Positions 7,288 to 25,424 of a DNA stretch of 32,000 bases are shown here, piece by piece. The DNA comes from Promethearchaeota archaeon. GTDB lineage: Archaea > Asgardarchaeota > Lokiarchaeia > Sigyniarchaeales > SOKP01. The stretch is from NCBI GenBank assembly GCA_030606485.1, contig JAUWGH010000001.1, positions 720,001 through 752,000 on the forward strand, written 5' to 3'. Positions within the stretch are counted from its first letter, which is position 1; each line of letters opens with the position of its first letter. The notes below the pieces were generated by a model that did no database searches, was not told the origin of the DNA, and saw only the letters and a list, made by a program, of their open reading frames with translations. The position numbers were made by a program, and so were the translations under genes.

Positions 7288-8097
7288 ATGCAACAACTGA
7301 TCTTGGAAAAACTTGAAGATTTGAAACAAATTTTAAAAAAGATGGAAAACGTAGCTATAGCCTTTTCAGGAGGGGTTGATAGTACTTTTCTTGTTAAAAT
7401 AGCGAATGATGTTTTAAGAGACAAGGTTTTAGCAATAACAGCAACCTCATCAATCCACCCAGAGTTTGAAAAAAAAGATGCAAAAATATTTGCAGAACAA
7501 AATAGTATTAGACACGTTATTTTTAAATCTGAAGAATTAAAAAATGAGAATTTTAGGGCAAATCCTCCAAATAGATGTTATCTTTGTAAAAAAGAATTAT
7601 TCTCTGCAATTAAAAGTATCGCCAATAAGGAGAATATTAAATATATCTTAGACGCAACAAATTTTGATGATTTGAGCGAGTATAGACCCGGTATTAAAGC
7701 TTTAGAAGAACTTGAGATAATAAGTCCTTTAAAGGATGTAAAATTAATGAAAGAAGAGATAAGAGCGTTATCAAAAGAAATGAATTTAAAGTCGTGGAAT
7801 AAACCAGCATTCGCTTGTTTAGTATCAAGGATTCCGTATGGTATTGAAATAACTGAAAAAAGATTAAAAATGATCGAAAGGGCTGAAGAATATATAATGA
7901 ATTTAGGTATCAGCCAAATTCGTGTAAGATATCACGACAAAATTGCGAGAATTGAAATAAATAAAAACGATATTCCATTATTGTTAAAACATTCAGATGA
8001 AATAAATGCAGAATTAAAAAAATTAGGATTCATTTATATAACATTAGATTTAGAGGGATATAGAACAGGGAGCCTAAATGAGGTTTTAGATATTTGA
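7288..8097 (+). CDS. larE: NPN cofactor sulfur transferase LarE (PP-loop ATPase)
   Basis: AFSGGVDS PP-loop, NRCYLCK, YRPG, KPAFACLVSRIPYG, RVRYH...ARIE, LDLEGYRTGSLN. First gene of a larEBC operon. Confidence 0.93.
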   Translation: MQQLILEKLEDLKQILKKMENVAIAFSGGVDSTFLVKIANDVLRDKVLAITATSSIHPEFEKKDAKIFAEQNSIRHVIFKSEELKNENFRANPPNRCYLCKKELFSAIKSIANKENIKYILDATNFDDLSEYRPGIKALEELEIISPLKDVKLMKEEIRALSKEMNLKSWNKPAFACLVSRIPYGIEITEKRLKMIERAEEYIMNLGISQIRVRYHDKIARIEINKNDIPLLLKHSDEINAELKKLGFIYITLDLEGYRTGSLNEVLDI

Positions 8098-8822
8098 AAA
8101 GGATATTGGAAGATTATAAGGAGGGAAAAATATCATTGGAAGAGGTTTTAGAAAAATTGAAAACTCTGCCTTACGAAGATTTAGAATTTGCAAAAGTAGA
8201 TACTCATAGAGCTCTCAGGAAGGGCTTTCCGGAAATTCTTTATTGTCCGGGAAAAACTATTCCACAGATAATGAAAATAGTTGAGAGTATGATGAAGCTT
8301 AAACATACGGTTTTAGCAACGAAATCTAATAAAGAAATTTTTGATACAATCAAAAAAGTTCATAATGAAGCAGAATATTATGAAAAAGCTAGAATTATTG
8401 TTGTACAAAAGGAACCAGTAAAACTTAAGGAAGGCAAGATATTAATTTTAACAGGTGGGACGTCAGATATTCCCATTGCAGAAGAAGCTGCTGTTATAGC
8501 TGAAATTATGGGCAATAAAGTGGAGAAAGCTTATGATGTAGGTGTAGCTGGTATTCATCGTTTATTTGATATTAAAGATAAAATTTTTGAGGCAAATGTA
8601 ATTATTGTAATAGCCGGAATGGATGGAGCATTGCCAAGTGTTGTGGGTGGATTATCATCAAAACCGATAATTGCAGTTCCAACAAGTGTGGGATATGGTG
8701 CAAGTTTTGAAGGAGTTGGTCCTCTTTTAACAATGCTTAATTCTTGTGCATTCGGAGTCACCGTTGTAAATATTGATAATGGTGTTGGTGCAGGTTATTT
8801 TGCTAATTTAATAAATAGGTGA
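8094..8822 (+). CDS. larB: NPN cofactor carboxylase/hydrolase LarB (PurE-like)
   Basis: AKVDTHRALRKGFPE, GGTSDIPIAEEA, DVGVAGIHRL, AGMDGALPSVV, AVPTSVGYG, MLNSCA, VNIDNG. TTG start overlaps the larE stop. Confidence 0.93.
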   Translation: MKRILEDYKEGKISLEEVLEKLKTLPYEDLEFAKVDTHRALRKGFPEILYCPGKTIPQIMKIVESMMKLKHTVLATKSNKEIFDTIKKVHNEAEYYEKARIIVVQKEPVKLKEGKILILTGGTSDIPIAEEAAVIAEIMGNKVEKAYDVGVAGIHRLFDIKDKIFEANVIIVIAGMDGALPSVVGGLSSKPIIAVPTSVGYGASFEGVGPLLTMLNSCAFGVTVVNIDNGVGAGYFANLINR

Positions 8823-8827
8823 ATCAA

Positions 8828-10003
8828 ATGGAAATTGCATATTTTGATTGTTTCTCAGGCATCAGCGGCGATATGATACTCGGGTCCTTAATTGATTTGG
8901 GTTTGGATATTGAATATTTAAAAAACGAATTTAAAAAAATTAATCTCTCTGGATATGAAATAAATGCTGAAAAAATTAAAAAAAGGGATATTTCATGCAT
9001 AAAAGTAAATATTACTGTAAAGGATAAGCAAAAACATCGGAGTTTAAAAGAAATTAATGCTTTAATCGATAAGAGCGAATTAAATCCAGAAGTAAAGAAA
9101 AAAAGTAAAGATATATTTCTAAAACTCGCTAAAGCAGAGTCAAAAGTTCACAATATTGACATTGATAAAATCCACTTTCATGAAATTGGGGCGATTGATT
9201 CGATTTTAGATATTATAGGAGCCGTTATTGGTCTTGATAAACTTAATCTTAAAAAAATATATTGCTCTACTATTCCTGTTGGGAGAGGTTTTGTTAAATC
9301 AGCACATGGAAAATTACCAATCCCAGCACCAGCAACAAGTGAATTATTAAAAGGAATTCCAACATATTCTACTAAAGTTGAGGGGGAATTAACTACCCCA
9401 ACCGGTGCAGCAATAATTACTTCATTAACAAATAATTTCGGTGAAATGCCATTAATACAAATCGAAAAGATTGGATACGGGGCGGGTAAATCCGATTTTG
9501 ATCATCCAAATTTATTAAGAATTTTTGTTGGCGAGTCTTTAGAGAACTATGACACAGACGTTGTGAATGTGATTGAAGTCAATATTGATGATATGAATCC
9601 AGAATATTATGAAGTTGTTTTTGAAAAATTATTAAAAAATGGCGCTTTAGATGTCTATCTTACAAATATTCAAATGAAAAAAAATAGACCTGGAATAAAA
9701 CTTAGTATTATTACACCATTGGAAATTACTAATCAACTTACAGATATTATCTTTAATGAAACCACTACTTTTGGTATAAGAATTTATAAAACTCATAGAA
9801 AAAAATTGTTTGTTGAGAAGGTAAAAGTAAAAACAAAATATGGTGAAATAACCATTAAAATTGGAAAAACAAAAGATGAAATAAAATTAATATCTCCTGA
9901 ATATGAAGATTGTAAAAAATTGGCACAAGAGAACAATGTTTCTTTGAAGGAGATTTATGAATTAGCTAAATTAAGTTATTTCTCTAAAAAAAAGAAAATT
10001 TAA
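8828..10003 (+). CDS. larC: NPN cofactor nickel insertase LarC
   Basis: AYFDCFSGISGDM, HFHEIGAIDSILDI, GELTTPTGAA, GYGAG, NIDD, MKKNRPG, ETTTFGIR, PEYEDC. ATG 8828 follows AGGTGA; GTG 8819 is the alternative start. Confidence 0.93.
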   Translation: MEIAYFDCFSGISGDMILGSLIDLGLDIEYLKNEFKKINLSGYEINAEKIKKRDISCIKVNITVKDKQKHRSLKEINALIDKSELNPEVKKKSKDIFLKLAKAESKVHNIDIDKIHFHEIGAIDSILDIIGAVIGLDKLNLKKIYCSTIPVGRGFVKSAHGKLPIPAPATSELLKGIPTYSTKVEGELTTPTGAAIITSLTNNFGEMPLIQIEKIGYGAGKSDFDHPNLLRIFVGESLENYDTDVVNVIEVNIDDMNPEYYEVVFEKLLKNGALDVYLTNIQMKKNRPGIKLSIITPLEITNQLTDIIFNETTTFGIRIYKTHRKKLFVEKVKVKTKYGEITIKIGKTKDEIKLISPEYEDCKKLAQENNVSLKEIYELAKLSYFSKKKKI

Positions 10004-16940: not shown

Positions 16941-17153
16941 ATGAATGTGAAAAAAAATCTATGCCGTTGGTATAATGAGAGTTCCGCAATGAAACGTGCC
17001 TATGATAAAGGGTTAATTGATAAGAAATGGGTTGAAAATTATTGTTTGGTTGGTGGAAAAAATTGTGTTCGAAAAAAAAGATTTGAAGAAGAGGGATATA
17101 TATCACCTGATTATGTTCTTCCAGATGGGAGCGAGGATTCTAAATTAAAATAG
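16941..17153 (+). CDS. Small conserved-looking Cys-containing hypothetical protein
   Basis: C-R-W-Y...MKR...G...KKW...YC...CVR...G..PDYVLPDG pattern in 70 aa, with an ATG start. Confidence 0.7.
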   Translation: MNVKKNLCRWYNESSAMKRAYDKGLIDKKWVENYCLVGGKNCVRKKRFEEEGYISPDYVLPDGSEDSKLK

Positions 17154-17163
17154 TTTTCTAAGA

Positions 17164-17391
17164 TTAATTAATTGTTCCAGAGTATGTAAATGTATGATGG
17201 TTCATTTTAATATAATATCCTCGATCAGTTCCTATTACTTTTCCACAATTAGGGCATTTTATTTCTTTATTATTTAGTAGCACGTAATATTTTTGAATAC
17301 GGCTTTTATAACAACGATGGACATTTCCTTTTCCTAATTTCACGTATTTAATAATTTTCTCTTTACATTTAGCACATTTAATGATAATCAT
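17164..17391 (-). CDS. Small zinc-ribbon-like protein
   Basis: CAKC...KLGKG.VHRCY..RI...CPNCG: two CxxC pairs plus one extra Cys. Confidence 0.72.
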   Translation of the reverse strand: MIIIKCAKCKEKIIKYVKLGKGNVHRCYKSRIQKYYVLLNNKEIKCPNCGKVIGTDRGYYIKMNHHTFTYSGTIN

Positions 17392-17552
17392 TCTTCTTCT
17401 ATTCTTTCCCTCATTTATTTTTATGAGTATCCATCAAATTATTTATAGATTCAAAAGTATAAATACTCAATCCACTAATAGAAGGAAAGAGTTTTCTTAA
17501 ATTTGATATTTTCACTATTACTATTGCAATCATTATGATATCAACTAATAAA

Positions 17553-18128
17553 TCATCTCATTTTTCGATTACCTACATAGCTACCAAGAGTAAAATATGA
17601 TTTTCCTTCATAAAATAATGGTTTCATTAATCCTTTTTGTTTACAGAGATTTTTTATAAAGATATCTTCGTCAAGTGATAATGCAACTACTTTTGCAGTT
17701 ATTATAACTCTATTTTCAGCATCATTTGAAACTTCTTTTATCCAAATTGTTTCACATTCCAAATGAGCCTTGCATTCTTCGATTCTTGGAGGTTTAACAA
17801 CTAAAGATTTAATAGGGGTTAAATTAGCGTGTATAAATTCATCTTCTTCAGATGGGATTGGATCAGCTGTTTTATTAACTTTTCTCAAAAGTTCTATACC
17901 TGGAATATTTAGGACAAACTCATTAGTCTCTAAGATATTTCTATATGTATCTCGATTTTTAGCTGACCCAACACTAATAATTAAAGGATTATAAGAAACA
18001 GGTATAACCATTCCATAAGGGGCAATATTATAAGTATCATTATTATCCATTGTTGAAATAAGATAAACAGGCACTGGTATAAGACATAAAGAGTAATGCT
18101 GTAATTCCAGATCTTTTTTATTTTTCAT
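17553..18128 (-). CDS. Flavin reductase family protein (DIM6/NTAB, split-barrel FMN binding)
   Basis: PVPVYLIST, NIAPYG, DTYRNILETNEFVLNIP, PPRIEECKAHLEC. Confidence 0.88.
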   Translation of the reverse strand: MKNKKDLELQHYSLCLIPVPVYLISTMDNNDTYNIAPYGMVIPVSYNPLIISVGSAKNRDTYRNILETNEFVLNIPGIELLRKVNKTADPIPSEEDEFIHANLTPIKSLVVKPPRIEECKAHLECETIWIKEVSNDAENRVIITAKVVALSLDEDIFIKNLCKQKGLMKPLFYEGKSYFTLGSYVGNRKMR

Positions 18129-18225
18129 AATTCTAAAATAAGTTAAGAAAAAATAAAAAAGAATTAGAATTATTGAGCTTTAATTATTTTAATTATTGAT
18201 TTCTTAATCCTTTTTTTCTGTAGGT

Positions 18226-19752
18226 TTATTTCTCATCGATTTTAATTTCAGTTCCTGCGATGGAAATGCTGCTAGCTGATATCCCTTCAGCATTTTTATA
18301 ATATTCTAATGAACGTGTTTCCACCTTTTTGATATAATCTTGCAATTGTGTTTCAATTTCAACTGGAATCTCGGGAGGAATGTAATTTTGAAGAATTTGA
18401 TCAACTTTTTCTCTAGCTGTTGTAATGATATCCTTAGACCCTTTCTTACGCCAAGTTGTTCTCCTATTACGGTCGATTAACTTTGGTATATACAATTCAT
18501 TCTTCATATGTTCCCGGGTGTGTTTTTCACCTAAGAAATTTGCGCCCGGTTTCCTTTCGGTGGCAACCTTTTTGATAGTATCTAATCCAATTGTATCCTC
18601 ATTTACGGTAATACCATCAAGTACTCTTTTTACTACTCCTGCTAACTCATCATCAATAATAAGTAGTTCTAATGCCTCTGCTAATGTGGATTCATATGTC
18701 CCCGCGCATGTAATATAATTTATACCTGCTTGAGCTGCTAACATCAATGTTTGTAAACGTTCGAATCCATTCTGGAGATCAAAACATTTAGATTCAGTGA
18801 CCGAACCTGGACCTCTTGATGGTATGTTATAAAATCTTGCTATTTGAGCAACTCCAGTAGTAATTAGCGTGGTTTCAATTGATCCTAACGCAGAATTACC
18901 AGATCGCATATCTGTAATACAAGAAACCGTTCCAAAAAATACTGGAGCTCCTGGATTAAATAATTGGGCAAGAACTATACCTCCAAGTATTTCTGCACTG
19001 GTTTGAGTTAATAATCCAGCTAATGTAACAGGAGCAGAACTCCCAGCAAGTGCTTCAGGAGCAATAATTGTGGGTTGTTTATATTTTGCAAATACGGAAA
19101 GACCATTTGTCATAATCTGCGGAAAGTGAAGCGGACTAGTAGGGTTAAAAAAACCTACAAGACGAGGTTTATTAATTAACTCCTTTTCTCCACCTACGAC
19201 AATTGACGCCATATTAATCATATCTTGGCTTGCTACTTTTCCATAACATCCAAGACCGTAAGGTTTCCGAGTATTTTTCACCCATTGATACATTGCATGG
19301 GCATGAATAGCCGTATACTTAACATCATTCGGCCAGACATCTACATGGGAATTATTAATATGTTCTAAACTATCTACAACACGAATTTGTTGAATCATAT
19401 CTTCAAGTAAGGATTTACGTACATTGTTTTTATTATTAGGATCGTAGATTTTAATAGGCGTTCCTATAGTAGCAAACTGAGTACTTGTTGTATTCACTTC
19501 AAAATTAAACGTGCCATCCGGTCCATGTAATTTAAAGGAATTAGGTACCTTTTTTAATTGTTCTTTAACGAGTGTTTCAGGAAATTTTACAAATGTAGTT
19601 TCTTGGTCGACTTCTGCTCCATGTTTTTCAAGGAGATCTCGAGTGTCTTGAGCATCAATCTTGATTCCCACGGTTGAAAGTAATTCTATTGCTGCTGAAT
19701 GAATAGTTAGAATTTCATCCTTTGAAAGAACATTAATACGGTTTAATTTCAT
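18226..19752 (-). CDS. Trimethylamine methyltransferase (MttB) superfamily, non-pyrrolysine member
   Basis: IHSAAIELLSTVG, NPTSPL, LAGSSAPVTLAG, PGAPVFFG, DMRSG, YNIPSRGPGSVTESKCFD.QNGFE, GINYITCAG, IDDE. No in-frame TAG; Val318 sits at the Pyl-equivalent position. Confidence 0.9.
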   Translation of the reverse strand: MKLNRINVLSKDEILTIHSAAIELLSTVGIKIDAQDTRDLLEKHGAEVDQETTFVKFPETLVKEQLKKVPNSFKLHGPDGTFNFEVNTTSTQFATIGTPIKIYDPNNKNNVRKSLLEDMIQQIRVVDSLEHINNSHVDVWPNDVKYTAIHAHAMYQWVKNTRKPYGLGCYGKVASQDMINMASIVVGGEKELINKPRLVGFFNPTSPLHFPQIMTNGLSVFAKYKQPTIIAPEALAGSSAPVTLAGLLTQTSAEILGGIVLAQLFNPGAPVFFGTVSCITDMRSGNSALGSIETTLITTGVAQIARFYNIPSRGPGSVTESKCFDLQNGFERLQTLMLAAQAGINYITCAGTYESTLAEALELLIIDDELAGVVKRVLDGITVNEDTIGLDTIKKVATERKPGANFLGEKHTREHMKNELYIPKLIDRNRRTTWRKKGSKDIITTAREKVDQILQNYIPPEIPVEIETQLQDYIKKVETRSLEYYKNAEGISASSISIAGTEIKIDEK

Positions 19753-19785
19753 AATATAATTTATCTCTTTTTTTTTTTAATTTAA

Positions 19786-20424
19786 TTAAGTTAATAATTT
19801 CTTCATTAGGGAAACTGCCTCGATTGCATCATCCGCCCAACCATCAGCACCAATTTGTTCCGCCCATTCTTCCGAGGTAGGACTTCCACCTACGATAACT
19901 TTATATTTATTCCTTAACCCCCTATCTTCCAACTCTTGAATTAATTGGCGCTGAAAATCCATTGACATTGTTAGCAGAGATGAAAGTGCTATCACTTGAG
20001 CCCCAACTTCTTCTGCTTTTTCAATAAATTTAACAGCAGGCACTTCTTCTCCCAAATTATAAACTTCAAATCCATTAGAAAAGAGGAAGGAGCCAACAAG
20101 ATCTTTTCCAATACTATGGACGTCAGTTTCCACGGTACCAATCACAATTTTGCCACGAGTTTCTCTCTCTTCCCCTATTGCCTTGATGGCTGGATCAAGT
20201 ACTTCATCAATAACAGCCTTTACAGTGTTAGCTGAGCCTACTAAATCCGGAAGGAAAATTTCTTCTTGTTCAAAACGCTTTCCTACAAATTGCATGATCT
20301 TTCCAATTGATTTTATAATTTCAGCTGGAGTTGCTTCCTTATTTTCAATTGTGGACTGGCATATTTTTTTTAATCCATCTTCATCCCATTCCAAGATGGC
20401 TTTTTTCATGCTTTCTTCAAACAT
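19786..20424 (-). CDS. Corrinoid (B12-binding) methyl carrier protein, MttC/MtbC-like
   Basis: N-terminal cap domain (VGKRFEQEEIFLPDL), DVHSIGK (DxHxxG), SSLLT, VIVGG, IGADGWADDA. Lies 33 nt upstream of the MttB-like gene. Confidence 0.92.
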   Translation of the reverse strand: MFEESMKKAILEWDEDGLKKICQSTIENKEATPAEIIKSIGKIMQFVGKRFEQEEIFLPDLVGSANTVKAVIDEVLDPAIKAIGEERETRGKIVIGTVETDVHSIGKDLVGSFLFSNGFEVYNLGEEVPAVKFIEKAEEVGAQVIALSSLLTMSMDFQRQLIQELEDRGLRNKYKVIVGGSPTSEEWAEQIGADGWADDAIEAVSLMKKLLT

Positions 20425-20474
20425 TACACTGCTTTCCTCTTCTAAAAATACTGGAATATTTTTATTTAATTAAT

Positions 20475-20544
20475 TATCTACTAAGATTTGTAAAAAAGGT
20501 TTTTAAAAAGTTCATAAATTAATTAGTAATGATATTAGTAGATA
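20475..20544. repeat. Perfect 10-bp inverted repeat TATCTACTAA (20475-20484) / TTAGTAGATA (20535-20544)
   Basis: Read directly in the divergent intergenic region between the corrinoid gene and the PLP enzyme gene. Confidence 0.6.
20489..20504 (-). promoter_or_regulatory. BRE/TATA-like promoter element for the corrinoid-MttB unit
   Basis: Minus strand AAAAACCTTTTTTACA about 65 nt upstream of ATG 20424. Confidence 0.35.
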
Positions 20545-20601
20545 TAATAAGAATTAAATCAATAAAATTCAATAAATAAAATAAAATTACTGCGATTTAA
20601 G

Positions 20602-21876
20602 ATGGCAGAAAAAAAAAAAGACATTAGGCAAATTGATCAAGAAAATCAAGAAAAATGGGAGAAACAGAAATTTGATACACAATTAATTAGGGCTGGCGAG
20701 GATCCATATCCCGAAACGTCACATAGTATACGCACGCCAATTTATGCAACAAAGTCTTATACATACTCATCTCTATCTGAATTGATTAAAAATCGTTATT
20801 TTTATTCCCGAACAGAAAATCCAACCTTATTTGCTCTTGAAAAAAAACTTGCAACACTTCATGGAGGAGAGAAAGCAATTTCACTCGCATCTGGGATGGC
20901 TGCAGTCCACCTTGCCTGCTCAAGCGTATTACAAAAACGTATAGAGCGATTGCGTCCTAATAGAATTAAAAATTTTTTTCCGCAAACCAACCCAGATAAG
21001 ATTCCTAATATTATAATTCACACAAATCAATATATAGGCTCCTATCGACTATTTACGAGAATTTATCCTCAAATGGGTATTGAAACCAAACGTATCAATA
21101 TGTGTGATTTAAGTGAAGTCAAAAAAGCTATTAATAGCCAAACAAAACTCATCTTTCTCGAAACACCAGCCAATCCAACATTAAACATCCTAGATATCCA
21201 AGAATGTGCAAATTTGATACATGAAGTAGGAGGTAAATGTATTGTTGATAACACTTGGGCATCTCCTGCGCTTCAACACCCTCTTGAATTGGGAGCTGAT
21301 CTTGTTGTTGAAAGCCTAACAAAATATATTAATGGCCATGGAGACTGCCTGGGAGGGGCAATTATTGGACCTAAAAATGAAATTTTGAATATTCGTTACT
21401 TTTGGTTAGAAACACAAGGTCCAGTTCTCAGTCCTTTCAATGCTTGGTTAATACTTCGAGGTGTCAGAACACTTGGTATTCGAATGACTCAGCATTCCTC
21501 AATTGCTATGAAAATTGCGCAGTTCTTAGAGAAGCATCCAAAAATTACAAAAGTTACTTATCCTGGATTGGAATCACACCCAAATCACGAACTTGCAAAA
21601 AAACAAATGTCTGATTTTGGAGGTATGATTGGATTTGAATTGAAATCTGAAGAAGCAAGTAAAAAGTTCATAGAAATCTTAAAATTGATAAAGATTGGAG
21701 TATCACTGGGAGATACGACCTCTCTTGTGATAAATTCATCATTCATGATCCTCGATCTTGCTAAATGGGAGCGAGAATCTATGAATATTTCAAATTCATA
21801 TTTTCGATTCTCAGCAGGATTGGAAGACCCAGATGATTTAATTGATGATCTATCTCAAGCATTAGCCCAATTATAA
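20602..21876 (+). CDS. Cys/Met metabolism PLP-dependent enzyme (cystathionine gamma-synthase/lyase/methionine gamma-lyase family), atypical
   Basis: YSRTENPT, ASGMAA, ETPANPT, VDNTWASP, ESLTKYINGHGD (Lys241), VSLG, RFSAGLED. Confidence 0.9.
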   Translation: MAEKKKDIRQIDQENQEKWEKQKFDTQLIRAGEDPYPETSHSIRTPIYATKSYTYSSLSELIKNRYFYSRTENPTLFALEKKLATLHGGEKAISLASGMAAVHLACSSVLQKRIERLRPNRIKNFFPQTNPDKIPNIIIHTNQYIGSYRLFTRIYPQMGIETKRINMCDLSEVKKAINSQTKLIFLETPANPTLNILDIQECANLIHEVGGKCIVDNTWASPALQHPLELGADLVVESLTKYINGHGDCLGGAIIGPKNEILNIRYFWLETQGPVLSPFNAWLILRGVRTLGIRMTQHSSIAMKIAQFLEKHPKITKVTYPGLESHPNHELAKKQMSDFGGMIGFELKSEEASKKFIEILKLIKIGVSLGDTTSLVINSSFMILDLAKWERESMNISNSYFRFSAGLEDPDDLIDDLSQALAQL

Positions 21877-21968: not shown

Positions 21969-23360
21969 TTATTGAACACGCTCTTTCTTTTTCTGATGTA
22001 GTTCAATCAATTGACTCTTAATTTCTTCAACACGATTTTTAGGAAAAGGATAGAAATAAAGGCATAAAAGTGAGATACCAAGTGCGATACCGGGGAAAAC
22101 AACAACCAATAATCGCAATCCAAATATTACATCCACTCCTGGGTTTTTTACATATTCTTCCCATCCTGTTGTTGAAAACACTATTCCTACTGTTACAATA
22201 GATAGAACCATTGCGAGTCGCATGAAAAAATTTGTAATTCCAAAGAAGGCTCCTTCACGTCGCACACCGGTTTTTAACTCATCTTCATCAATAACATCTG
22301 CAATAATAAGGTATATGAAGTATAACATACCACCAAAACCAAAGCCCATAAAGATCACTGTAATAAGTGCACTAATATAGGTATCTACGAATAATAAAGG
22401 AAGCGTTGCAGCGAAATACAAAATCATTGAAACTGCATATATATTTTTACTCCCATACTTAACATCTAATTTTCTCCAGATCATAACTGTGATGATGCCA
22501 ACGATAAACATTAATCCCAATAAAATTCCCGTTTCGAAAGTGCTTTCCACATGTAAAATATGTTCACCGAACAGGGGGACAACTGTGGCAAGAACTAACA
22601 GAATATATTCATATAAGAAAAACATTATTGTATACAAAACAAATCCTTTGTTTTTTAATGTATATTTCAGACCTTGGAAAAATTTGAACTCATGTTTATA
22701 GTCTAATTTAAACTCTTCCCGTTCTAATACACCCCATTTTATTGAGAATAGTAGGGATAATCCCACAATAATAGACGTGATAATTCCATTAATTAGATAA
22801 CCACTCATCTCAGTAAGTTCACCAATAAAGAATCCGGGTACTAAAAAAGCTAAAATTAACCCAACTGTAGCAAGAATTTGCTTAATTGTATTAACTTCAG
22901 CTCTTTCCTTCACTGAAGTGTAAAGTTCCGGGAAGAGAGAATCGTATGGGAGTGCAATCATAGTATAGAATGTATCATAGCAAAAAAGCATAATAAGTAG
23001 ATAAAAGAACCCTAATACATGATTACCTGTAGGTGGCATCCAAAGGATTATCTCAATGATAAGAACCGGTATGGTCCCCAGCATAATATAAGGTTTTCTG
23101 CGTCCCCACCTGGTCTTTGTCCGATCTGAAATTATACCGATTAAAGGATCGTTAATTGCGTTCCAAATTGTCCATAAAACATAGGCTAGTATGATATAAT
23201 AAACTGGTAAACCTACTGCAGTAAAATAAAATGAAAAAACCCAAGTATTAAACGCGCTATTAATGAAAAATTGCGCAAAACTTCCCATTCCAAAACTCCA
23301 TTTTTGCAATTTCCCAAATCGTTGAATTTCCACTTCTTGCTGATTTTTTAAATCACTCAT
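21969..23360 (-). CDS. MFS transporter, GPH/MelB-like family
   Basis: WNAINDPLIGIISDRTKTRWGRRKPY, YDSLFPEL, ADVIDEDELKTGVRREG, about 12 TM segments. Confidence 0.9.
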   Translation of the reverse strand: MSDLKNQQEVEIQRFGKLQKWSFGMGSFAQFFINSAFNTWVFSFYFTAVGLPVYYIILAYVLWTIWNAINDPLIGIISDRTKTRWGRRKPYIMLGTIPVLIIEIILWMPPTGNHVLGFFYLLIMLFCYDTFYTMIALPYDSLFPELYTSVKERAEVNTIKQILATVGLILAFLVPGFFIGELTEMSGYLINGIITSIIVGLSLLFSIKWGVLEREEFKLDYKHEFKFFQGLKYTLKNKGFVLYTIMFFLYEYILLVLATVVPLFGEHILHVESTFETGILLGLMFIVGIITVMIWRKLDVKYGSKNIYAVSMILYFAATLPLLFVDTYISALITVIFMGFGFGGMLYFIYLIIADVIDEDELKTGVRREGAFFGITNFFMRLAMVLSIVTVGIVFSTTGWEEYVKNPGVDVIFGLRLLVVVFPGIALGISLLCLYFYPFPKNRVEEIKSQLIELHQKKKERVQ

Positions 23361-23490: not shown

Positions 23491-24312
23491 TCAATAGGAA
23501 TAAAAACCTTTTTGAGTTTTTAATCCTAATTCACCCTTTTCAACCTTTTCCTTAAGAAGTTGTGGTGGTTTGTCTCTTGGATCTCCGCTTTCTTTATAGT
23601 ATGACATCTCTATATCATAAACAACATCAAGTCCAATAGCATCCATTAATCTAAAAGGTCCAACTCCCATTTTGGTATATATTTTCCATGCTTTATCTAC
23701 TTCTTCAATATCTGCATAACCACCTGCCCAAATTTCCAAACATTCTTTTTTTACGGCTCTCCATACTCTATTAAATACAAAACCAAAACATTCTCTTTTT
23801 ACAATAAGAGGTGTAATTTCTATACTCTCAAGCCATCTTTTTCCTTTTTCGAAAGTATCATCGCTTGTTTTAGAACCTTTCATTATATCCGCCATTGGGA
23901 TTGAAGTTAAGTTATAAAAGTGAATATTTAACACTTTATCCTTTCTTTCAACAGCATCCTCAATCCTTGAAACTGCAATCGATGAGCTATTAGTAGCAAT
24001 TATTGCATTAGGTGGAGCTGTTTTATCAATTTGTGAAAATATGTCCTTTTTTAATTCTAACTTTTCAGGTACTGCTTCAATGATAAGATCTGCGTCTGCT
24101 ACAGCTTCATTAAGATTTTCGTGAAAAGTAACTTCTCCTTCTATTTGATTACGTTTTTTCTTTCTTGTTAATGAATTTGCTAATTTTTCACATCCTTTAG
24201 GATTCACATCATAGAAACGTACAGTATAATCTTTTAATGCTGTTTTTCGTATAATCTGATCCCCCATAAATCCAGCTCCTATTACCGCAACAACATTTAT
24301 ATTTTTATTCAT
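23491..24312 (-). CDS. 3-hydroxyacyl-CoA dehydrogenase family protein
   Basis: VIGAGFMG Rossmann motif, IEAVPEKLELK, TNSSS, IHFYN, GFVFNR, GPFRLMDAIGLD, KTQKGFY. Confidence 0.9.
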   Translation of the reverse strand: MNKNINVVAVIGAGFMGDQIIRKTALKDYTVRFYDVNPKGCEKLANSLTRKKKRNQIEGEVTFHENLNEAVADADLIIEAVPEKLELKKDIFSQIDKTAPPNAIIATNSSSIAVSRIEDAVERKDKVLNIHFYNLTSIPMADIMKGSKTSDDTFEKGKRWLESIEITPLIVKRECFGFVFNRVWRAVKKECLEIWAGGYADIEEVDKAWKIYTKMGVGPFRLMDAIGLDVVYDIEMSYYKESGDPRDKPPQLLKEKVEKGELGLKTQKGFYSY

Positions 24313-24449
24313 ATTTTATTTTCACTAAAAATTTATTTGTGTTTTTAATAATTAGTAATTTGATTAGAGTCTTAAAAAATATATTTTAAAAAAATTATGA
24401 TAAAAAAATATTTTAAAATGATTAAGATAAAACTAAATAAACAATTCAA

Positions 24450-25424
24450 TTAAGATTTAGTTAATTGTTCAATATATCTTAAAAAATAATCATTTTCTTT
24501 TTCAGTTCCTATTGTAACTCTTATGTATTCTGAACTTAATTGCTCAGAAACGTCGTGAACATAAATTTTTTGTTTTAATAATTTTTGAGAAATGTTTTCA
24601 ATACCAGTTTTCATTAAAATAAAATTAGTATAACTTGGAAAAACTGTAATTCCCATTTTTGAAACTGAAGTTACTATTCTTTTTTTTTCTTGTTCAATTT
24701 CTTTAATATATTTTTTCATGTAATCCAAATTATGTAATGCATTAATAGCAGCTACGACACTAGGATAAGGTAACATAATTTCTAAACCAATAAATTTCCT
24801 TTTTATAACATCTCCGCAAAGTATATACCCAATTCCAGAACCCGCTAAACCAAAAGATTTACTTAATGTCCTTACAATGGCTAAGTTAGGAAAATCAATT
24901 AATAAATTTACATAAGATATCTTTGAAAATTCGAAATATGCCTCATCTATTAGAAATATCACATTTTCATTTTCCAAAACTGTCTTTACATCTTTTTTAT
25001 TTAATAGCAGACTTCCAGTGGTATTATTAGGGTTGTCAAACACAATCATAGTTGGTTTATTAATTTCATCAATAAATTGTTCTAAAGAAATTTTAAATTC
25101 GGGTTCTCTTAGTCTGATTTTTAACAGCGGTGAAGAGGTTTTTTGAGCGGTATTTGTGATCAAAATAAATGTTGGATCTGCAATAATTATCTGCCGATTT
25201 CTTGCAAAAAGATAAATGAATTCTTTTATCAATATATCTGAAGCTGAACTTAAAATTATGGAATCTTGAGGAACTTTTGTATAATCAGAGATTAATCCAA
25301 TTAATTCTTCTACTTTTACTTGGGGAGTATAACGATTTATATTTTCAATACTTTCCTTTACAGGGTCAATAATTTCTTTTGGAGGGGGTTTAAACATTTC
25401 ATTTTTATCTAATCTAATTCTCAT
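24450..25424 (-). CDS. HisC/CobD-like class I/II PLP-dependent enzyme (divergent)
   Basis: IRLDKNE, NRY, NPNNTTG, IDEAYFEF, RTLSKSFGLAG, SYTNFIL, IRVTIGT..END. Confidence 0.82.
   Translation of the reverse strand: MRIRLDKNEMFKPPPKEIIDPVKESIENINRYTPQVKVEELIGLISDYTKVPQDSIILSSASDILIKEFIYLFARNRQIIIADPTFILITNTAQKTSSPLLKIRLREPEFKISLEQFIDEINKPTMIVFDNPNNTTGSLLLNKKDVKTVLENENVIFLIDEAYFEFSKISYVNLLIDFPNLAIVRTLSKSFGLAGSGIGYILCGDVIKRKFIGLEIMLPYPSVVAAINALHNLDYMKKYIKEIEQEKKRIVTSVSKMGITVFPSYTNFILMKTGIENISQKLLKQKIYVHDVSEQLSSEYIRVTIGTEKENDYFLRYIEQLTKS

Follow-up and report, generated by a model that had tools for sequence, protein, structure and literature searches.

The 32,000-nucleotide (nt) window analyzed here (positions 720,001 to 752,000 of contig JAUWGH010000001.1, assembly GCA_030606485.1) comes from a Promethearchaeota archaeon of the Lokiarchaeia lineage; about ten studies of cold seeps and marine sediments have yielded metagenomes that contain DNA of this organism. 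The window contains a compact group of genes that centers on a methyltransferase of the MttB superfamily, a corrinoid protein and a pyridoxal phosphate (PLP)-dependent enzyme of cysteine and methionine metabolism (hereinafter the PLP enzyme). On the minus strand, the gene for the methyl carrier, a corrinoid (cobalamin-binding) protein of 212 amino acids (aa; 19786-20424; PF02607 and PF02310, B12-binding_2 and B12-binding, E-value 3.1e-23), is followed after 33 nt by the gene for MttB-A, a non-pyrrolysine MttB-superfamily methyltransferase of the methyltransferase 1 (MT1) type (508 aa, 18226-19752; PF06253, MTTB, E-value 2.4e-106), and, after another 97 nt, by a gene for a flavin reductase-like protein (191 aa, 17553-18128; PF01613, Flavin_Reduct, E-value 1.9e-23). 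An AT-rich divergent intergenic region of 177 nt (20425-20601) separates this arm from the plus-strand gene of the PLP enzyme (424 aa, 20602-21876; PF01053, Cys_Met_Meta_PP, E-value 1.4e-121). Convergent with the latter is a minus-strand gene for a cation symporter of the MFS_2/GPH family, presumably an importer (463 aa, 21969-23360; PF13347, 2.6e-65; TIGR00792, 5.2e-53). The map of open reading frames (ORFs) exactly reproduces the genes, strands and gaps given in a preliminary description of this locus, which recognized four genes correctly but overlooked the importer, a part of the conserved unit.

Scans of the ORFs of at least 100 aa in the 32-kb window detected no gene for a methyltransferase 2 (MT2) or a RACo activator and no pyrrolysine (Pyl)-related gene, and an Rfam search returned nothing at the gathering score. 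The earlier statement that MT2 and an activator are missing holds within the window but not for the genome as a whole. A canonical activase of the Fer2-RACo type is encoded 86 kb away (G000:C10:826263-828167), and MtrH, a stand-alone Pterin_bind protein, 11 URO-D genes and a homocysteine methyltransferase are found elsewhere in the genome; no MetE was found there.

Conservation of the cassette in Asgard archaea

The conservation of the locus was surveyed in 41 relatives for synteny and in 400 Asgard genomes for the orthologue of the PLP enzyme. This orthologue is encoded in 76 of the 400 genomes and in 71 of the 134 genomes of the window's own family, with a patchy distribution within genera. 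In the synteny survey, it is present in 12 of the 41 relatives (64-92% identity), each time beside an A-type MttB gene and a corrinoid gene, and the same association is seen at all 17 loci inspected; in two further relatives, the MttB-A gene lies at a contig end. No PLP orthologue was found in many complete relatives, and two genomes of the same genus, G002 (94% complete) and G003 (90% complete), lack both MttB-A and the PLP enzyme. This patchy presence and joint loss point to an accessory module that is inherited as a unit rather than to housekeeping methionine biosynthesis.

The same partners occur in three gene orders. In each of these, the corrinoid gene and the MttB-A gene form one arm, and the opposite, divergent arm consists of a second MttB paralogue (MttB-B) followed by the PLP gene, of the PLP gene followed by MttB-B (e.g., in G198 and G113), or of the PLP gene only. 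The first of these is the commonest, with the MFS_2 gene located next to the PLP gene. The corrinoid proteins encoded in the cassette loci are 57-88% identical, and of the 12 cassette loci on sufficiently long contigs, 10 have an MFS_2 orthologue (55-72% identity) next to the PLP gene; it is also present at the loci L061, L063, L065, L068 and L069. The neighborhood comparison thus finds the pairing of MttB, corrinoid protein and PLP enzyme in many genera and three gene orders, so that it is not peculiar to this genome.

The back-to-back arrangement of the corrinoid and PLP genes that is seen in the window recurs in G001, G016 and the locus L061 from an unrelated metagenome-assembled genome. 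None of these encodes MttB-B, which is missing from this genus. On the tree of the PLP enzyme, the four-gene forms devoid of MttB-B are found at two places and each time retain the PLP gene, which implies that MttB-B was lost at least twice. The window holds a trimmed, four-gene copy (MFS_2, PLP enzyme, corrinoid protein and MttB-A) of an accessory, probably catabolic cassette of Asgard archaea. Literature searches found no published description of a cassette of MttB and a PLP enzyme of this kind, in line with the preliminary description, whose author was not aware of one.

A different arrangement is observed in the cassette copy at the locus L031 (G011:C110:3786-6967), where the two MttB paralogues are encoded back to back, approximately 180 nt apart; this copy has no corrinoid gene between them and must rely on a carrier from another part of the genome.

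Features of the methyltransferase, the corrinoid protein and the PLP enzyme

The match of MttB-A to PF06253 (356 bits) spans profile positions 28-495 of 500, i.e., the whole TIM-barrel domain. The reading frame is open, with no internal stop and no in-frame UAG, and in a HMMER alignment Val318 (motif GSVTESK) occupies the position of the pyrrolysine X of Methanosarcina barkeri MttB (7XCL), which bears out the earlier observation that the gene has no Pyl codon. A match to the Rfam family PYLIS_3 inside the gene (18702-18800, minus strand; 21.8 bits, compared with the gathering score of 38) starts directly after the Val318 codon and supports the register of the alignment; the match itself is probably a mere remnant of coding-sequence homology. 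MttB-A scores 420 bits against TIGR02369, below the equivalog cut-off of 525, and, together with the lack of UAG, this led us to reject its identification as a Pyl-dependent trimethylamine methyltransferase. A TAG codon in the MttB orthologue of G016 was considered as a possible pyrrolysine codon but is the C-terminal stop, and the Pyl position is occupied by Val.

An AlphaFold2 model of MttB-A (predicted local distance difference test score, pLDDT, 89.6) matches MtgB (2QNE; Z 53.9, root-mean-square deviation 2.1 over 474 residues, 33% identity) and MttB (7XCL; Z 51.9, 32% identity) about equally well. In MtgB, glycine betaine is contacted by Y97 and F356 through cation-pi interactions and by R312 and H348 at the carboxylate, and R312 is kept in all characterized MttB-family members because their substrates are acidic (PMC13080624). 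This arginine is retained in MttB-A as Arg313. At the other contacts, Y97 is replaced by Ile96 (a less certain assignment given that the alignment column adjoins a gap), H348 by a gap beside Cys349, which is invariant at this site of the pocket, and F356 by Thr356. Thus, with the carboxylate-binding arginine the only one of the four contacts that is kept, MttB-A is a non-Pyl enzyme that differs from the plain glycine betaine methyltransferase envisaged as one outcome in the preliminary description; its substrate is probably an acidic onium compound, judging by this conserved arginine.

MttB-A carries the A-type signature APEALAGS / GTVSxxTDM, and MttB-B, which is encoded in most cassette copies, is 52-60% identical to MttB-A. 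Seven substitutions are fixed between the two paralogues (I96/V, E233/A, V276/M, T280/M, M282/P, Q334/M and T356/S, A and B, respectively). Two of these correspond to MtgB Y97 and F356, and the model places Glu233 on the catalytic face of the barrel, at the C-terminus of a strand. These differences suggest that MttB-A and MttB-B probably take related but different substrates, and MttB-A may recognize an extra positive or hydrogen-bonding group. The corrinoid protein contains the motifs DVHSIG (DxHxxG, characteristic of base-off/His-on binding), SSLL and VGG, and is closest to MtgC and to pyl_corrinoid, with scores below both NCBIfam cut-offs.

The best solved relative of the PLP enzyme is methionine gamma-lyase (MGL) from Citrobacter freundii (311 bits). 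The catalytic core of this lyase consists of Lys210, Ser207, Ser339, Tyr113, Tyr58 and Arg60 (PMC9307983), and all these residues have equivalents in the PLP enzyme (K241, S238, S368, Y144, Y68 and R70, respectively). Otherwise, the two proteins diverge: the position of MGL Cys115 is taken by Gly146, within the motif YIGS as opposed to YGCT in MGL. Cys115/116 of MGL contributes to the specificity of that enzyme. The PLP enzyme scores below every NCBIfam cut-off, including those of TIGR01328 (MGL; 347 bits, cut-off 549.7) and PRK07811 (MetB; 365 bits, cut-off 513). Compared to the nearest homologues, it has an N-terminal extension, a lid loop before Tyr68/Arg70 that is 12 residues shorter, and a conserved basic insertion of 21 aa (residues 111-135) that is modeled with low pLDDT; the HPAxMTH motif is replaced by EYTxxMTG, and by INSSFMI in this genus. 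The term "atypical" that was initially applied to this protein is therefore apt.

The Asgard PLP enzymes form one full-length cluster at 50% identity, the next homologues being at most 46% identical, and a long stem separates this clade from the outgroups on the tree. A homologue from G043 that is 47% identical is treated as an outgroup, its 6-kb contig showing no MttB gene in the vicinity. An ESM Atlas search started with the PLP enzyme identifies generic trans-sulfuration clusters only. In the source genome, which is 100% complete, this is the sole true Cys_Met_Meta_PP protein. Its patchy distribution, its co-inheritance with MttB-A, its isolated clade and the missed MetB cut-off show that it is not a housekeeping MetB, the other simple outcome considered at the start. 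Given the conserved core, it is expected to be a gamma- or beta-eliminating lyase or a replacement enzyme. One orthologue (G250:C65:50046-51311) contains a single in-frame TAG, which could be a near-end stop, a mark of a pseudogene or a case of recoding.

Candidate functions, alternatives and surrounding genes

The reading that we favor, with modest confidence, is that the cassette is responsible for import of an acidic methyl-onium compound, its demethylation onto cobalamin and gamma-elimination of the product; we infer the following order of steps and nature of the substrate. A methyl-onium compound with a carboxylate group, either a quaternary ammonium or a sulfonium compound, would enter the cell through the MFS_2 importer, and MttB-A would move one of its methyl groups onto the corrinoid protein in the Co(I) state. 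The resulting methyl-Co(III) form would then be unloaded by a methyltransferase encoded elsewhere (of the MtrH, Pterin_bind or URO-D type), and the corrinoid would be re-activated by the RACo protein of this genome. The demethylated amino acid, with its free alpha-amino group, would undergo alpha,gamma- (or beta-) elimination on the PLP enzyme, yielding a 2-oxoacid, ammonia and a leaving group. Since the PLP enzyme is kept in cassettes devoid of MttB-B, coupling of the two steps would require that one round of demethylation suffices to give an amino acid on which this enzyme can act. The most concrete candidate is S-methylmethionine, converted to methionine and then to 2-oxobutyrate, a route that the preliminary description had also offered; it is the only common natural compound known to us that appears to fit, and we propose it tentatively, as a substrate that is unlikely to be the right one. 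It is similarly doubtful that the cassette would represent a corrinoid-dependent route, the first of its kind, for S-methylmethionine or a similar onium amino acid, with a new Asgard-specific gamma-lyase splitting the demethylated product.

Several points weigh against this interpretation. The link between the cassette neighbors is deduced from synteny, the identity of the substrate is a guess, and the scheme does not account for MttB-B in the five-gene form. The PLP enzyme has no MGL-type cysteine and resembles cystathionine gamma-synthase (CGS) and cystathionine gamma-lyase (CGL) at this position (YIGSYRLF), so that methionine may not be its substrate. To our knowledge, no member of the MttB family acts on a sulfonium compound, and S-methylmethionine is more familiar as a plant compound than as a constituent of cold-seep sediment.

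A second MttB cluster in the same genome (L049, G000:C1:138750-145618) consists of genes for an MFS_2 protein, an MttB, a corrinoid protein, a homocysteine S-methyltransferase (HcyMT), another MttB and a SAM-methyltransferase-like protein, in this order. It contains the only PF02574 (S-methyl_trans) domain of the genome, and neither of its two MttB proteins has the conserved carboxylate-binding arginine. Throughout the genus, every genome has an HcyMT gene beside an MttB gene, and several other genera show the same neighborhood. This cluster looks like a betaine-linked split methionine synthase (cf. PMC12478193).

The first alternative to import, demethylation and elimination is that the cassette itself serves methionine synthesis, with a betaine methyl passing via the corrinoid protein to homocysteine that is made or recycled by the PLP enzyme, one of the two options offered in the preliminary description. 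The absence of MetE from the genome and the location of its sole homocysteine S-methyltransferase domain inside the second MttB cluster are compatible with this route, as is the betaine-linked split methionine synthase known in Ruegeria (PMC12478193). However, no copy of the cassette includes a homocysteine methyltransferase, and stand-alone HcyMT is absent from 7 of the 12 cassette-bearing relatives, which makes the cassette independent of the HcyMT cluster. Conversely, the HcyMT cluster persists in G002 and G003 although the PLP enzyme is missing, and homocysteine supply in these genomes therefore does not depend on this enzyme. Thus, this option is disfavored, and we consider it unlikely.

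The order of the two reactions could also be reversed, with an imported amino acid that carries a gamma substituent being split first, by the PLP enzyme, and the onium leaving group then demethylated by MttB-A. A wider substrate site in the PLP enzyme is suggested by the short lid loop that precedes Tyr68/Arg70 and by the changed HPAxMTH motif, and some members of this enzyme family are known to release bulky leaving groups from the gamma position. Nevertheless, we know of no natural compound of this type, and Arg313 of MttB-A indicates an acidic substrate, as is the case for intact betaines (PMC13080624), so that a lyase-first pathway appears quite improbable.

Still less probable is demethylation of a thioether, namely methionine, by MttB-A, with the PLP enzyme pulling the reaction by destroying homocysteine. 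The CGS/CGL-like character of the PLP enzyme at the Cys115 position and the invariant Cys349 in the MttB-A pocket, at the site of MtgB His348, would suit this scheme, and methionine is abundant for a peptide fermenter. However, a thioether methyl lies energetically well below methyl-tetrahydromethanopterin or methyl-tetrahydrofolate, as is known from methionine synthase and Mtr, and methionine was largely rejected as the MttB-A substrate on these thermodynamic grounds. Furthermore, the corrinoid thioether methyltransferases known so far are without exception zinc-dependent and have a different fold, and no zinc site is evident.

A part of the flavin reductase in the cassette, which the preliminary description had suggested as an aid to corrinoid reduction, is very improbable as well, be it as a corrinoid reductase or as an activator. 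The gene is on the same strand as mttB, 97 nt downstream, and the corrin reductase CobR belongs to the same flavin reductase family. However, a T-rich tract lies between the mttB stop codon and the start of the flavin reductase gene, and full-length RACo is encoded in the genome. The flavin reductase gene adjoins the cassette only in G000 and G001, i.e., within one genus; orthologues with 71-79% identity are encoded by G016 and G006, on contigs other than that of the cassette, and by the cassette-free genomes G019 and G014, and none was found in six cassette-bearing genomes (G011, G012, G017, G022, G024 and G030). With orthologues in cassette-free genomes, unlinked elsewhere and not found in most cassette-bearing genomes, its suggested role is largely refuted: the flavin reductase is a bystander outside the conserved module.

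Finally, a chance juxtaposition of a glycine betaine MtgB/MtgC pair with a housekeeping MetB or MGL appears to be the least credible alternative: the best solved relatives are indeed MtgB and MGL, but Y97, H348 and F356 of MtgB are not conserved, all NCBIfam equivalog cut-offs are missed, and the unit holds together across three rearrangements and is acquired or lost in one piece.

Beyond the importer, a short gene of the 3-hydroxyacyl-CoA dehydrogenase family (273 aa) and a gene for an N-terminally short HisC-like aminotransferase (324 aa) occupy 23491-25424 on the minus strand; they are probably unrelated to the cassette, their synteny being common only to G001. On the other side, a 723-nt spacer contains two small ORFs without a Pfam match, one for a 75-aa protein with a double CxxC zinc ribbon (17164-17391, minus strand) and one for a 70-aa Cys-rich protein (16941-17153, plus strand). 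In two runs, metagenome contigs cover positions 17068-17531 at 2-5 times the depth of the flanks, although this stretch is not a repeat in this genome. Farther away, larE-larB-larC-like genes (PP-loop, AIRC and Ni_insertion) are located at 7288-10003 on the plus strand, with no LarA-like gene in the window.

Relationship to known systems and implications

One of the closest described systems is MtgB/MtgC of Desulfitobacterium hafniense (2QNE, 9YCE; PMC13080624), which belongs to the same superfamily and shares with the cassette the fold, the absence of Pyl, an adjacent corrinoid protein with the DxHxxG motif and the carboxylate-binding arginine. In contrast to the Mtg system, the cassette has no MtgA-type MT2 at the locus and includes a PLP enzyme and an MFS_2 importer, which are part of no described Mtg system; in addition, Tyr97, His348 and Phe356 of MtgB give way in MttB-A to Ile, to a gap beside Cys349 and to Thr, respectively. 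MttB/MttC of M. barkeri (7XCL/7XCN) has the same fold and a corrinoid partner, and the PYLIS_3 remnant is a further link, but MttB-A has Val318 in place of pyrrolysine. MtpB, MtcB, MtyB and MthB of Eubacterium limosum (PMC8604678, PMC12155760, PMC13080624), compared here by description, are likewise non-Pyl enzymes with the conserved arginine that methylate a corrinoid protein from an acidic onium compound. Unlike the cassette, the E. limosum quaternary amine demethylases use MtqC/MtqA partners, and their products (e.g., norcarnitine and amines of the dimethylglycine type) are not passed to a PLP lyase.

On the side of the PLP enzyme, C. freundii MGL (2RFV) and CGS and CGL have the same Cys_Met_Meta_PP fold and core catalytic residues (PMC9307983). 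The PLP enzyme differs from them in its identity of no more than 46%, the glycine at the Cys115 position, the 21-aa insertion, the N-terminal extension, the short lid and the rewritten HPAxMTH motif. MtgBCD of Ruegeria pomeroyi (PMC12478193), which the L049 cluster resembles, similarly connects sulfur amino acid metabolism with a corrinoid protein and an enzyme of the MttB family; in the cassette, however, there is no homocysteine methyltransferase, and this tie is made by an enzyme of the PLP lyase type. The present analysis adds the minimal four-gene form, the repeated loss of MttB-B, the exclusion of the flavin reductase, the residue-level test against MtgB, the family-level survey and the independence of the cassette from the homocysteine methyltransferase cluster.

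No substrate is known for the majority of MttB-superfamily proteins, which are numerous in Asgard archaea. The cassette is strongly conserved and common in one lokiarchaeial family, where it is found in about half of the sampled genomes, and it ties a cobalamin-dependent methyltransferase to a dedicated enzyme of the PLP lyase type, a combination that we found in no paper. Its trimmed four-gene form provides a minimal set of proteins for expression and assay. Knowledge of the substrate would show one of the compounds on which uncultured Asgard archaea feed in sediments, and could bring to light a new route in the marine cycling of methyl groups and, possibly, of sulfur. If the substrate is a sulfonium compound, catabolism of one-carbon units and of sulfur amino acids would be coupled in the Asgard archaea of these sediments.

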